Virus record (IMG/VR): IMGVR_UViG_3300009378_001140
From: an uncultured virus (IMG/VR IMGVR_UViG_3300009378_001140)
Lineage: Duplodnaviria > Heunggongvirae > Uroviricota > Caudoviricetes
Strand: one strand, 5' to 3'
Length of the DNA stretch: 64,000 nt
Under the pieces are notes generated by a model. That model had not been told where the DNA came from. It worked only from the letters and a program-made list of their open reading frames with translations, and did no database searches. This document shows, piece by piece, positions 2,098 through 24,460 of this stretch (positions are counted from its first letter, which is position 1; each line of letters begins with the position of its first letter). The translations under genes were made by a program, and so were the position numbers.

Positions 2098-2447
2098 GAT
2101 GCTCTCACCATTGTCTGTTGCTGACGATCTCTTTGCAGTATCTCTTTGAGAGTTTTCTCTCTCCACGCTGTTGTGCTCGGCGACTCCCAGTGACCCCAGG
2201 GGAAACCCAGGACATCCCAACCCTTGTTTGTCAGCGTTAGCTCCCAATTTGACGTTTGTTTCACCCACTTCCGTTTCATGATCACCTCAAGGGTGTTTTT
2301 CTTTATCACCCGCTGCGGGTTCTCATGCCTGTGACACAACACGCGGTCAGATCCTGCGAACCAGAACCCACCTAGAGCTATTCGGGTCAACGCCTGACGC
2401 TGGACATCTGTCACCCTTCTCTCACTCATGATCTCACCCCTTGACAC
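2094..2447 (-). CDS. hypothetical protein (possible winged helix)
   Basis: ORF coupled to rtcB; C-terminal LTNKGW is typical of a wing. Confidence 0.5.
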   Translation of the reverse strand: MSRGEIMSERRVTDVQRQALTRIALGGFWFAGSDRVLCHRHENPQRVIKKNTLEVIMKRKWVKQTSNWELTLTNKGWDVLGFPWGHWESPSTTAWREKTLKEILQRDRQQQTMVRAS

Positions 2448-3651
2448 AAACGACAGCGCGGAGTGTATGGAGGACCTCGACCAGATCTGATTGTGCCTTC
2501 ATAACATCCTCGATCGGCTTGTAGCTCATCGGTGTTTCATCGATCACATCCTCATCCTTCCTACACTCCAATCCTTCTGTTGCGCGAGCGTGATCCTCAA
2601 CAGAGAACAGCGCCTTCGCCCTGGTCCGTGACATCGCCCTGCCTGCGCCGTGCGAACAGGAGTTGAACGATTCCTTATCTCCCTTTCCTCTCACAATGAA
2701 TGAGCTACGTCCCATCGCGCCAGGAATGATTCCCAGGTCACCTCGCTGCGCTCTGACCGCGCCCTTTCTTGTCACCCACACGCTCCTTCCGAAGTGTTGT
2801 TCCTTCGCGATGTAGTTGTGGTGACAGTTAACGACGAAATCACCGTGGGAGAACTCTCGTCGAAGCGCCCATGAGATCGAGTCAAGAGCACGATCCATCA
2901 TCAGCTCACGGTTCACCTTCGCGAATCGCTGGGCCCAGTTGACCGCCTGAACATAATCCTTGAAGTGCGGTGACCCCTGTGGGATGTACGCGAGATCCTT
3001 GTCAGGCAGGTTGATGAACCAGCGCTCCATATCCTTCTTTGCCAGTGAGATGAAGTGGGTTCCGATACGGTTCCCAACACCTCGTGAACCTGAGTGGAGC
3101 ATGACCCAAACAGAATCGCCCTCATCGACACACACCTCTATGAAGTGGTTACCTGAACCCAGGCTAGACAGGTGTCGCACGTTATTCGACTTCGCGAGGC
3201 GCGGGTGTTTATCGCAGATCACATCGAAATCATCCTTGAGGGTGTTCCACTTACGTGCGACGTCGTCAGGGATATCTCTCCACGCACCCTCGTCACGTGA
3301 ACCTCCGTGGTGGGTCCTGCCATGCGGGATCATCCGTTCAATCCGAGAGCGCACCTTCTGCATGTTGTCAGGCAAGTCGCTCGCTGTCAGAGATGTGCGA
3401 ACTGCCATCATCCCACATCCCAAGTCGACGCCGACAGCGGCGGGAACGATCGCGTTAAGTGTGGGAATGACACTCCCGACGCAGGCGCCTTTCCCCATGT
3501 GCGCGTCGGGCATCACCGCGATGTGACGATGGATGAACGGCAGGGATGACAACCTTCTCAGCTGATCCCTGGCCTGATCCTCAACGTGAACTCCCCTGGT
3601 CCACATCTTAACCAGACCAGGGGAGTTATCTAGCACATCGTAGCTTGACAT
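2434..3651 (-). CDS. rtcB: RtcB-family RNA ligase
   Basis: MPDAHMGKG, VGVDLGCG, GSGNHF, HSGSRG, HN and HGAGR motifs. Confidence 0.97.
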   Translation of the reverse strand: MSSYDVLDNSPGLVKMWTRGVHVEDQARDQLRRLSSLPFIHRHIAVMPDAHMGKGACVGSVIPTLNAIVPAAVGVDLGCGMMAVRTSLTASDLPDNMQKVRSRIERMIPHGRTHHGGSRDEGAWRDIPDDVARKWNTLKDDFDVICDKHPRLAKSNNVRHLSSLGSGNHFIEVCVDEGDSVWVMLHSGSRGVGNRIGTHFISLAKKDMERWFINLPDKDLAYIPQGSPHFKDYVQAVNWAQRFAKVNRELMMDRALDSISWALRREFSHGDFVVNCHHNYIAKEQHFGRSVWVTRKGAVRAQRGDLGIIPGAMGRSSFIVRGKGDKESFNSCSHGAGRAMSRTRAKALFSVEDHARATEGLECRKDEDVIDETPMSYKPIEDVMKAQSDLVEVLHTLRAVVCVKG

Positions 3652-6698: not shown

Positions 6699-6906
6699 TG
6701 ATCACCTCAAGATGTTTTATTCCTAAGGTCCAGCACTCAGCACTGTACTCGTCTGAGTATGTCATGATAGTTACCACGGAATTTTCGCCCTTCTCGCTCA
6801 CAAAGATCGAATTGTCACTGTCGATGACAACACCCACCTTGCCCTCGAGGTAGTTAGGAAGGTACATCTCATCGAGAGAGATCATGACAAGATCACCTGA
6901 TTTCAC
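6685..6906 (-). CDS. small KOW/SH3-like hypothetical protein
   Basis: MKSGDLVMI...GKVGVVI...LEVIS. Confidence 0.65.
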   Translation of the reverse strand: MKSGDLVMISLDEMYLPNYLEGKVGVVIDSDNSIFVSEKGENSVVTIMTYSDEYSAECWTLGIKHLEVISEGG

Positions 6907-7631
6907 GATAGATCAACGTCTAGATGTGTGTTAAACATCTGGGCACTTGGCTCATTAGGGTATCCTCTCGGATTACAGATCAGCCTTGTCACTCCGAGAA
7001 CGTCATCGAATCCCGTGTGAGTGTGACCGAAGAACCAGAACGCTGGCTTGCGATCAAGGATGAGATCAGTGTGGTCACAGACAAAGAATCTGTTCAGCAT
7101 GGAGTTCTTCCACTCCCTAGCCACACAGAACTCACTGGGAAGGTGATGCGTGATGACGATGTCACCCTCATCCAGGTTCTCCTCAAGGTGTCGCTGGAAC
7201 GCCTCCTGCTGATCATACACCCAGGGCTTGAATCCGGAGATGTGATTGAAATCACCCAAGTTCCGCTCGTAGTGAATATTTAGCGGGTCATCTCGGAACC
7301 AGCCTGTTGACCCATGGAATGTTCTCCCGTCGATCTCAACTGTGGGATTCTCTGGGTGGAGGTAGTGAAGATTGTTATTCTTGTCACTGGCCGCGGACAG
7401 GATGTCGTGTACCTTATCCGGTGACGACATGTAATACACGTGATTCCCTGGCACATAGATGACCTCGCTGAACCTCTCACAGAATATGTCGAGGGTTCTG
7501 TCAATGTCCAGACACGAGTCGATGTCACCCGCTAGAATGAGAAGATCACAACCGCTGTCAAGCCCGTCAACGAACTCACGTCGATAACCGGTGTGCTCAA
7601 GGTGTAGATCTGATAGGATCCTGACTTTCAC
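6903..7631 (-). CDS. calcineurin-like metallophosphoesterase
   Basis: SDLH, AGD, PGNH, THH, GHTH and NPRGY motifs. Confidence 0.92.
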   Translation of the reverse strand: MKVRILSDLHLEHTGYRREFVDGLDSGCDLLILAGDIDSCLDIDRTLDIFCERFSEVIYVPGNHVYYMSSPDKVHDILSAASDKNNNLHYLHPENPTVEIDGRTFHGSTGWFRDDPLNIHYERNLGDFNHISGFKPWVYDQQEAFQRHLEENLDEGDIVITHHLPSEFCVAREWKNSMLNRFFVCDHTDLILDRKPAFWFFGHTHTGFDDVLGVTRLICNPRGYPNEPSAQMFNTHLDVDLS

Positions 7632-11322: not shown

Positions 11323-11739
11323 TCACAGAACTAGCTCATTCCACATGCCGTTTTCATCGGTATACTTAACCCTCTTTATTCCTGCGTCTTTAATGTGAAA
11401 CATACAATGCTTACATGGCTTAGCCATTGCAAAACCGTCATCAGATCTTTTAAATCTCATAACCTCTATTTCATCACCTTCCATAGCAAATCTCAAAACG
11501 TTCATCTCAGCATGCATATGAGAGCCTGTCGTTCCATCAGGATATATTCTTTTAAATCTTGGATGAGTCTTACAAGTGTTTTCACCGATCTTAACAATCT
11601 TTCCCCGACGCCTTAAGATTGCAGCAACGTGATAAGCTCTTCCGTTATTAATTGCTAATTTACGAGCTCGATAGTACACTGGGCATGAGTCTTTCTCCTT
11701 AATATAACCTATATTACTACATTTTTTGAAGATGTTCAA
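11323..11739 (-). CDS. zinc-dependent deaminase (cytidine/dCMP deaminase superfamily)
   Basis: HAE and PCKHC motifs. Confidence 0.85.
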   Translation of the reverse strand: MNIFKKCSNIGYIKEKDSCPVYYRARKLAINNGRAYHVAAILRRRGKIVKIGENTCKTHPRFKRIYPDGTTGSHMHAEMNVLRFAMEGDEIEVMRFKRSDDGFAMAKPCKHCMFHIKDAGIKRVKYTDENGMWNELVL

Positions 11740-12043
11740 CTAAGATCTGAATCTCAACATCGCTCAAATATAGATTTGGCATTGTTGTACCGGGCTTAAC
11801 ACTATCTGGATCCCTTAGCCATCGTGCAAGATTTTCAGGAGTATTCTCAAGAACGCCGGCAATCATCTTTCGTGATGAAAATCCCGACAGGTCAGGACAC
11901 ACTCCTGATGTGTGACATGTCTTGCATGCCTTTGACTGAAACAGTCTGTCTCCTTAATCTTGCATAGATATATTTTGACTGATTCTAAAGCCCTCTGCCG
12001 GGGCGTTGAAAGCAGAGAGAAAAATTATCATTAATGAAATCAT
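11717..12043 (-). pseudogene. class I cytochrome c interrupted by one in-frame TAA
   Basis: Signal peptide from ATG at 12043, TAA at 11954-11956, then CKTCH haem motif and KPGTTMP axial Met in the same frame. Confidence 0.8.
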
Positions 12044-21760: not shown

Positions 21761-22279
21761 TTAAAATCCCATCTGTTTAACAGTTTCATATAATAGTATA
21801 TTTGCGACCTGTGATGTGTTTAAACAGTATCCAACACCGGGCATGGGAATGTGAATAATGTCACTATTTCTTAGAATCTCTGCTGGGACTCCGGTCTCCT
21901 CATTGCCAACCACCAGACACACTCGACATGTAAAGTCAAATCTATAAGAGCCAATTGGTCTTGATCCCTCGCAGATTTCTGCTGATACGAGTTTGATCCT
22001 TTCACCCTCAGCCCAATCTAAAAAATCGCGAGGTGATGAGTGTTGTTTGATATCTACAAAGTCACATAGACTTCCAGACAAAGGGTTTAACATCTTTCGT
22101 TTCGGAACTGATCCGATTACATGCACTCGCTCTGCTCCAAAACATGCTGCAGCCCTTATTAGATACCCAAGATTTCCATCATGCATAAAATTAATACAAC
22201 AAAGACTAACGGGGTATGACTTAGCATTTTTCAATTTTAGGCTATATCTCTCTCTTCTAGTATTGCTTCGCGTATTCAC
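21761..22279 (-). CDS. SpoU/TrmH-family RNA 2'-O-methyltransferase
   Basis: NLG.LIRAAACFG; VGNE..GV; IPMPG...CLN.S. Confidence 0.93.
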   Translation of the reverse strand: MNTRSNTRRERYSLKLKNAKSYPVSLCCINFMHDGNLGYLIRAAACFGAERVHVIGSVPKRKMLNPLSGSLCDFVDIKQHSSPRDFLDWAEGERIKLVSAEICEGSRPIGSYRFDFTCRVCLVVGNEETGVPAEILRNSDIIHIPMPGVGYCLNTSQVANILLYETVKQMGF

Positions 22280-22956: not shown

Positions 22957-23043
22957 TGGAGCTCAGAGTGGGATTCAAACCCACGACGTACTTTCGTATC
23001 AGGATTACAAAACCTGTTCCTTCGATCACTCGGACATCTGAGC
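22957..23043 (-). tRNA. tRNA-Thr(UGU) with an atypical long variable arm
   Basis: GCTCAGA/TCTGAGC acceptor, CAGGT-TT TGT AA-TCCTG, variable hairpin TAC GAAA GTA, U73, CCA. Confidence 0.85.
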
Positions 23044-23790
23044 ATTAAAATTTTTATACTTACTATAGCCTCTCCTGAAGCAATGTTCATCATAAAATTC
23101 TGGCATCAATCGTCTCAATCGCCTGCCTGTAACTTGAGAAACTTCGCCAAAACGTTCGCTAAGCTTTTCTACCCACCCAAACTTTGAAAAATCAATTTCT
23201 CCAGATTCGTGTAAATCTTTTACTTTCTCTACGAACTTCTTATTAAACTCTTCTTTCAATTCTTTCAAGGTCGATCTTTCTTTCTGATATTTTTCAAAAT
23301 CCTTGTTTCCTTTTCGAATTCTAGCTGACGTTTTCTTGTTGCTTTTCCTGCCCCAGTTTCGAAAATTTGAAGTTAGTGCATGACAATTTGGACACAAAAC
23401 CCTGAGATTATCTTTTGAATTATTCTTATGATTTCCATCAATGTGATCGATCTCTAGTATTGAACTTCCACACTTTCTCGTTTTATCAAACCCACACTCT
23501 GAACATTTGAAATTTACTTCTTGGATCAAAATATTTCTTTTAATGGCCCATCCCACTTCGTTCCATGATCTTTTGCAGAATCGATTATGAGCTGCTCGCG
23601 CCCTGTGTGTATCAAACTGTCTACTACACTCATCACATTTATGATTTCCTAGCGCGTTTAAATCTCTACGCCTTTGTATTTTTCGATTTTTTGATCCTTC
23701 TCCATTACAAGCTACTATATGCTTACTAATATTATTAGCACTAAAATAGTCATTGCACAACTCGCAGTGTTTCATTTTGTTTGCTGACAT
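23026..23790 (-). CDS. HNH endonuclease with N-terminal zinc fingers (homing-endonuclease-like)
   Basis: CxxC..H fingers; CSECG...EIDHIDGN..NN...NL..LCPNCH; stop codon lies inside the tRNA-Thr gene. Confidence 0.92.
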   Translation of the reverse strand: MSANKMKHCELCNDYFSANNISKHIVACNGEGSKNRKIQRRRDLNALGNHKCDECSRQFDTHRARAAHNRFCKRSWNEVGWAIKRNILIQEVNFKCSECGFDKTRKCGSSILEIDHIDGNHKNNSKDNLRVLCPNCHALTSNFRNWGRKSNKKTSARIRKGNKDFEKYQKERSTLKELKEEFNKKFVEKVKDLHESGEIDFSKFGWVEKLSERFGEVSQVTGRRLRRLMPEFYDEHCFRRGYSKYKNFNAQMSE

Positions 23791-24356: not shown

Positions 24357-24441
24357 TGGTAGGCACGGTAGGACTCGAACCTACATGCACCAATTACCCT
24401 AGTTTTATGCACGGTATATAAGACCGCTGGGATACGTGCCC
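24357..24441 (-). ncRNA. tRNA-Ile(UAU)-like RNA with internally permuted D-arm
   Basis: GGGCACG/CGTGCCT acceptor, A73-CCA, perfect T-arm, GCGGT-CT TAT AT-ACCGT arm; D-arm elements are in swapped order. Confidence 0.8.
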
Positions 24442-24460
24442 AAATAATTCATCTATGTCA

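Follow-up and report, generated by a model that had tools for sequence, protein, structure and literature searches.

An uncultured giant marine phage carries, within its tRNA cluster, a tRNA-Ile(UAU)-like gene whose 5' D-arm half is displaced

Can a tRNA work when its parts follow one another in an unusual order along the chain? To our knowledge, all known working tRNAs share one arm order, and the exceptions we know of involve either loss of an arm (in mitochondria) or rotated genes that are reordered as RNA. The question is raised here by a minus-strand gene within a 64,000-nucleotide stretch of an uncultured virus (IMG/VR record IMGVR_UViG_3300009378_001140; hereafter the window). We put at roughly 40% the probability that the product of this gene is a working, AUA-reading tRNA in which the D helix is re-formed by long-range CCC/GGG pairing. 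The gene is laid out as follows, where RNA position i equals window coordinate 24442-i:

24357..24441, minus strand: the whole RNA gene, tRNA-Ile(UAU)-like with a displaced D-arm half; 85 nt including the encoded CCA
24435..24441, minus strand: 5' strand of the acceptor stem (RNA 1-7); 7/7 pairs with 24361-24367
24428..24434, minus strand: 7-nt connector UAUCCCA (RNA 8-14), read as U8, A21, UCCC = 22-25 and A26
24411..24427, minus strand: anticodon arm (RNA 15-31), 5-bp stem GCGGU/ACCGU and 7-nt loop CUUAUAU
24418-24420, minus strand: anticodon UAU, inside the loop CUUAUAU
24402..24410, minus strand: 9-nt linker GCAUAAAAC (RNA 32-40), whose first four bases repeat the variable-loop GCAU
24389..24401, minus strand: displaced 5' half of the D arm, UAGGGUAAUUGGU (RNA 41-53); 13 bases, a copy of D-arm positions 8-20
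24385..24388, minus strand: variable loop GCAU (RNA 54-57)
24368..24384, minus strand: T arm (RNA 58-74), 5-bp stem GUAGG/CCUAC and loop UUCGAGU
24361-24367, minus strand: 3' strand of the acceptor stem (RNA 75-81)
24357-24360, minus strand: discriminator A73 and encoded CCA (RNA 82-85)
24466-24461 and 24461-24456, minus strand: TATAAT overlapping TTGACA, 15-25 nt upstream of the gene; seen by eye, not a spaced pair

The minus-strand sequence quoted in a first-pass annotation of this DNA proved exact, and so did the anatomy that it described, with half of the D arm displaced and the rest in order. In the usual tRNA numbering, the chain runs 1-8, 21-43, linker, 8-20 and 44-76. All seven acceptor pairs (RNA 1-7/75-81) form, one of them, G1-U72, as a wobble; the acceptor, anticodon and T helices have zero mismatches, and the acceptor stem, T arm and CCA are intact, as had been claimed. 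The anticodon loop is fully canonical (7 nt, U33 and a purine at 37). A D hairpin is absent between canonical positions 9 and 26: in the Rfam alignment, 4 nt take the place of 15 D-arm positions, and the variable region, which spans 26 nt from the anticodon arm to the T arm, receives a 23-nt insertion. Within this region, UAGGGUAAUUGGU reads U8-A9, GGGU (10-13) and AAUUGGU (14-20, including G18 G19), while the CCC of the connector (AUCCCA, RNA 9-14) would supply the D helix with its 3' strand. The RNA has every defining tRNA feature except the D hairpin.

There are several ways to read such a gene, and the best-surviving rival to a working tRNA is a dead one: a rearranged tRNA-Ile(UAU) in which a copy of the D half was inserted at the variable loop and the original was deleted, leaving a remnant that has not yet decayed. 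We consider this somewhat unlikely. The missing D hairpin is what such a remnant would show, and so is the Rfam tRNA score (RF00005) of 34.2 bits, against 51-66 bits for the neighbouring tRNAs; on the other hand, two separate changes would have had to keep every structural piece, three mismatch-free helices and the CCA.

The score is nevertheless above the RF00005 cut-off of 29, with a UUCRA T loop, a 7-bp acceptor and CCA present, and ARAGORN calls Ile(tat) at the locus, albeit with the wrong ends (24361-24459); the expectation that standard tRNA finders would miss this gene was mistaken. We rejected the 99-nt ARAGORN model itself, which places a mismatched acceptor stem further upstream. Rfam families other than tRNA gave zero matches at E up to 1.

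What does the displaced segment contribute? We un-permuted the gene with a script that joins slices of the window (acceptor 5' strand, RNA 41-53, RNA 9-31, then 54-85), leaving out the duplicate U8 at RNA position 8 and the linker. From the reordered sequence ARAGORN returned a complete 75-nt four-arm tRNA-Ile(tat) with a GGG(U)/(U)CCC D stem and a AAUUGGUA D loop. A14, A15/U48, G18, G19, A21 and A26/G44 (usual numbering) are all in place in that sequence; these are residues with tertiary roles, as expected of a working tRNA. To gauge chance, random 7-nt connectors were paired with random 26-nt inserts in a Monte Carlo run of 2,000,000 pairs, judged by a lenient criterion of resemblance: a U-R-N4-A-R-Y-Y-G-G-Y word whose N4 pairs with the connector at 3/4 positions or more. 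Only 1,466 of the 2,000,000 pairs (~7 in 10,000) matched. Thus, the displaced D half is not a chance resemblance and is a genuine feature of the gene.

Most likely, the gene derives from a normal tRNA-Ile(UAU) whose positions 8-20 now lie after the anticodon arm and before the variable loop. The complete GGGCACG acceptor occurs in four metagenome tRNAs with the anticodons GAU (3) and CAU (1), which fit an isoleucine ancestry; a 23-mer covering T arm and acceptor found 24 loci in metagenome contigs, all of them ordinary tRNAs. Two related phages have a CAU tRNA whose positions 1-20 agree with the first 20 nt of the gene at 17/20 bases, and under the alternative ancestry that this match offers, UCCC-AGCGGUC would be a D-stem 5' strand followed by a D loop. 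Since AGCGGUCUU also serves as the anticodon stem in a relative's tRNA-Ser, the likeness to the CAU tRNA leaves the history undecided; the same secondary structure is on offer under either ancestry.

The sequence is reproducible. One 30-kb contig of run X1 and two contigs of run X5, a run from another study, repeat it with 0 differences, and we rejected an assembly artefact because the same sequence came from two studies (record G001, 100% identical over the locus, is the same phage and not independent). Two runs labelled metatranscriptomic yielded nothing for the locus, and no RNA run was among those listed as containing it. Run X5 also has a diverged copy: a 151-nt contig of lower depth, with 7 substitutions and 1 insertion in its alignment to 24358-24430 (~10% divergence). 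The swapped layout is retained in this copy over RNA 12-84, the 5' 11 nt being missing. The changes listed are A9 to C and U17 to C, both at tolerant sites, and one extra G within the linker; zero changes are listed in RNA 51-84, and the other five substitutions would fall towards the end of the contig, in RNA 12-41. None of the listed changes touches the T arm, the acceptor 3' strand, GGG, A14 or G18 G19. Divergence of ~10% with these parts unchanged indicates that a copy of the same layout has persisted, which argues against a dead gene, as does the fact that the DNA of that contig past the RNA 3' end is unalignable.

A further argument against a dead gene is codon demand, which is high for AUA in this phage: ATA makes up 331 of 882 Ile codons (38%) in 36 ORFs (12,610 codons) of the window. 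Other tRNAs of the cluster likewise read A-ending codons that the phage favours (ACA, 58% of Thr; TCA, 35% of Ser). Transcription is less well served. The gene had been credited with a dedicated promoter, but a consensus scan found no spaced sigma-70 -35/-10 pair upstream, the TATAAT and TTGACA merely overlapping, and this result favours a dead gene. The earlier argument against decay stands in part: the three perfect helices, the CCA, the diverged copy with its layout and the AUA usage speak for it, but the promoter has to be withdrawn from it.

The window comes from an uncultured giant marine phage. IMG/VR contigs with relatives of its helicase measure 200-290 kb, and the nearest polymerase of a cultured phage is only ~30% identical. 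Between 29243 and 63924 we noted cell-like genes for GreA, sigma-70, a GroEL-type chaperonin, a DnaK fragment, Pol III alpha, Fe/Mn superoxide dismutase, thymidine kinase and two cytidine/dCMP-type deaminases. The gene studied here is a real gene within a phage tRNA cluster, where five minus-strand tRNA-type genes, all with encoded CCA, comprise Ser(UGA), Thr(UGU), the Ile(UAU)-like gene, Asn(GUU) and Leu(UAA); an HNH endonuclease ORF (23026-23790, minus strand) lies between Thr(UGU) and the Ile(UAU)-like gene. The Thr(UGU) tRNA (22957-23043, minus strand) is itself aberrant: 87 nt long, with a long variable arm, a 3-bp D stem, a U discriminator and the T loop UUUGAAU (U at position 56), it resembles the adjacent tRNA-Ser(UGA) closely when the two are aligned, in the D arm as well as in the anticodon and T stems, and differs from it in the acceptor stem. 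A tRNA-Ser paralogue of class-II shape, it combines the form of a serine tRNA with a threonine anticodon. The cluster may therefore tolerate decay, and the U at T-loop 56 and the class-II shape of this neighbour, as hints of relaxed constraint, count towards a dead Ile(UAU)-like gene as well. Elsewhere the window encodes an RtcB RNA ligase (2437-3651, minus strand; Pfam E = 1.3e-125; 21 kb from the gene), a calcineurin-like phosphoesterase (6906-7631) and a SpoU methylase (21761-22279), which suggests functions of the phage in tRNA repair or modification.

Folding calculations give the proposed D helix little help. The sequence permits CCC/GGG pairing around the anticodon hairpin, as the first-pass annotation had it, but the helix has 3 pairs only, adds 0.9 kcal/mol and reaches a pair probability of ~0.04 in nearest-neighbour folding, so that its rebuilding of the D helix stands as a permitted structure with a folding probability of about 4%, in models that ignore tertiary contacts. 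A rival hairpin, GCAU/GUGC (RNA 32-35 with 52-55; 4 weak pairs closing a 16-nt loop), reaches 0.28-0.40. The fold as a whole shows no stability gain over shuffled sequences (z = 0.05), another point in favour of a dead gene.

These numbers bear on a second rival, a different fold or role: the RNA may lack a D arm in the manner of animal mitochondrial tRNA-Ser, its 26-nt variable region being floppy, or it may be a non-decoding decoy for a host tRNA-cutting defence or a modification enzyme. We find either improbable, and more so than a dead gene. The minimum-free-energy structure does consist of acceptor, anticodon arm, a weak hairpin at the variable position and T arm, without the long-range helix; yet the insert is D-arm-like exactly at the bases of tertiary contacts, a likeness needless in a mere spacer, and the 1-nt insertion of the diverged copy falls within the 5' strand of the rival hairpin. 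As for a decoy, RtcB and SpoU in the window suggest that the phage handles tRNA damage or modification, and phage tRNAs that evade anticodon nucleases are described in extracts of PMC10264068 and PMC11464382. The fully canonical anticodon loop speaks against this second rival in either form. Least credible by far is repair at the RNA level, in which the transcript would be cut and rejoined into a canonical tRNA, for example by the RtcB encoded 21 kb away and in the manner of the permuted tRNA genes that are cut and ligated in red algae and archaea (PMC3978253, in extract), because four cuts and three ligations would be required to restore the order, the ends as they stand already pair as an ordinary acceptor stem with CCA, neither a bulge-helix-bulge-like motif nor an endonuclease came to light, and the contigs examined, DNA contigs only, contain no joints.

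On the reading that we prefer, a working tRNA with a long-range D helix, the transcript would be made, trimmed at normal acceptor ends and used as an AUA reader. Coming from the elbow end, the connector would form positions 21-25 in the D helix and continue into the anticodon stem, after which the chain would return via the linker to positions 8-13, where GGG (10-12) would pair with CCC (23-25), and the D helix would take its usual place stacked on the anticodon stem. At the elbow, the displaced AAUUGGU (14-20) would contact the T loop (G18/G19 with 55/56), keeping the L shape, and the 4-nt variable loop would lead into the T stem. Three backbone junctions would be rewired (8 to 21, 43 to 8/9 and 20 to 44), all in the compact core. 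The residues at these junctions are neighbours in known tRNA structures, and engineered circularly permuted tRNAs tolerate backbone breaks. That the RNA is transcribed, folds, is charged by IleRS and decodes is what we infer. The fuller proposal, a natural tRNA with a non-circular change of topology in which the 5' D half and the block of D 3' strand plus anticodon arm have been swapped, with the L shape, Ile charging and AUA reading, we advance tentatively.

The Ile determinants that had been pointed out, A73 and C4-G69, are indeed present, but the RNA has 6 of the 12 elements of the bacterial tRNA-Ile identity set listed in PMC9976931. Those present are A73, C4-G69, A35, U36, A37 and U20. 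At the other sites the RNA has G12-C23, G29-C41, U38, U16, A21 and U34, where the listed set, which may not suit the host's IleRS, has U12-A23, C29-G41, A38, G16, U21 and C/G34 (PMC9976931).

If the layout works, does it recur? None of 15 related phage records contains a similar tRNA, an absence that again favours a dead gene. Across these records RF00005 gave 42 matches above the cut-off, all of at least 54 bits, with no tRNA match between the cut-off and 54 bits; four matches below the cut-off scored 14-16 bits, and two of them resemble tmRNA 3' ends. Viral contigs yielded 0 matches to the exact 19-mer of the anticodon region, 0 matches to a 21-mer spanning D loop, variable loop and T arm, and no relatives of two small flanking ORFs. 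A blastn search of the 401-nt region against cultured phages found tRNA-Asn matches only.

We then consider the layout itself. Four scans for an architecture pattern, three of them in viral contigs and one in species genomes, yielded at least 185 loci. In the viral contigs, (i) the first scan gave 21 loci, of which 1 fits, (ii) the second gave 25 loci, of which 13 were scored by a stricter script with 1 fit and 12 were left unscored, and (iii) the third gave 19 loci with 1 fit, which is the same sequence, G007:9445-9518; in the species genomes at least 120 loci were found, and 0 fit among the matches listed. The sole candidate among the at least 185 loci is thus G007:9445-9518 (= L107:9445-9518, minus strand; L056/L074), 74 nt long. 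In the swapped layout it reads as an Arg(CCG) tRNA, in which the 7-nt connector is of the same type and a word resembling the D half has a stem strand complementary to it. An ordinary cloverleaf, its anticodon loop 9 nt long, can be drawn just as well and is the structure that Rfam prefers; the cloverleaf has an energy of -29.5, the swapped layout -27.9 and the minimum-free-energy fold, which uses the CCG hairpin, -33.6. Cultured phages contain no match to it. As the normal cloverleaf is equally drawable, we treated this locus as ambiguous and did not count it as a supporting homologue. A family of such RNAs did not emerge from the four scans, and the swapped layout has so far been seen in one phage lineage.

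The viral contigs contained other unusual tRNA-like genes. The 42-kb contig that carries the ambiguous locus (L107, G007:1-20000, and L108) has ~34 tRNA matches and a tmRNA; its Asn(GUU), Met(CAU) and Lys(CUU) tRNA genes are 84-88 nt long and have extended variable arms, and the D arm is poor in an Ile(UAU)-like gene at 11722-11797. Contig L070 (match 151-181) has a tRNA with normal acceptor, D and T arms and ~50 nt between the two anticodon-stem strands, too short for a group I intron. L053 and L068 carry related elements of ~115 nt, in which an acceptor-like stem is paired and two hairpins resemble T arms; on L068 a tRNA-Arg(acg) predicted by ARAGORN at 110-195 overlaps the element, and on L053 ARAGORN makes no call. 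On L057 a tRNA-like gene combines a perfect acceptor stem with an anticodon loop of 9 nt and 5 additional nt ahead of the D arm.

How, then, should the evidence be weighed? We favour a working tRNA because (i) the pieces reassemble into a perfect four-arm tRNA, at the chance level given above (1,466/2,000,000), (ii) the helices are mismatch-free, CCA is encoded and both zero-difference copies and a diverged copy exist, and (iii) ATA is used heavily, the acceptor is shared with GAU/CAU tRNAs and no other Rfam family matches. The same reading is weakened because the CCC/GGG helix is weak, has a rival hairpin and lies in a fold at the level of shuffles; because the layout was found in 0/15 relatives and at 1 ambiguous locus among at least 185; and because there is no spaced promoter, 6/12 Ile elements are present and the Thr(UGU) neighbour is aberrant. 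The first interpretation of the locus keeps its anatomy and some of its evidence against decay, but loses the promoter and the evasion of tRNA finders; the roles that it proposed, in TilS-independent AUA decoding or as a nuclease-resistant tRNA or decoy, are speculative.

Compared with canonical bacterial and phage tRNA-Ile (RF00005; UAU and lysidine-modified CAU readers of AUA), the RNA shares the acceptor, A73, C4-G69, anticodon arm, T arm and CCA, and its acceptor strand is identical to that of metagenome tRNA-Ile(GAU) genes; the canonical molecules differ in their D hairpin at 9-26, which is absent here, the D half following the anticodon arm instead. The class II tRNAs (Leu, Ser, Tyr) have a long stretch between anticodon arm and T arm, like the 26 nt found here, but keep the D arm and have a well-paired variable stem, in contrast to 4 weak pairs and a 16-nt loop. 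D-armless tRNAs are known from animal mitochondria, for example tRNA-Ser(AGY) (PMC4013460, PMC9427863 and PMC7609411, each in extract). As far as those extracts go, a short connector replaces the D arm there, like the 7 nt of our RNA, but the D-arm sequence is wholly lost, the variable loops are short and the genes are organellar, whereas the phage-encoded RNA retains the D-stem strands, A14 and G18 G19 elsewhere.

A non-standard order of parts is shared with the circularly permuted tRNA genes of Cyanidioschyzon merolae and Thermofilum pendens (PMC3978253, in extract) and with the YrlA Y RNAs (RF02553). In the accounts available in part, these genes and mimics are rotations of the whole molecule, with the 3' half first and the ends rejoined or capped; the ends of our RNA are normal, with an open acceptor stem and CCA, and two internal segments are swapped. 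RF02553 itself does not match the RNA at E up to 1. An internal swap of D half and anticodon arm was not described in the literature searched, which includes the extracted part of a review of non-canonical tRNAs (PMC7609411). If functional, the chain layout of this tRNA would be one not described before.

Should the gene be dead, it is a curious rearrangement only. If the preferred reading is true, a swapped-segment tRNA would change the picture of a fixed arm order, and the tRNA core would tolerate three rewired backbone junctions in nature. It would offer a natural test of shape against chain connectivity for RNase P, the synthetase, EF-Tu and the ribosome, as well as a new scaffold for the design of orthogonal tRNAs. 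Real phage tRNAs would, moreover, be among the sequences that gene finders and pseudogene filters throw out.
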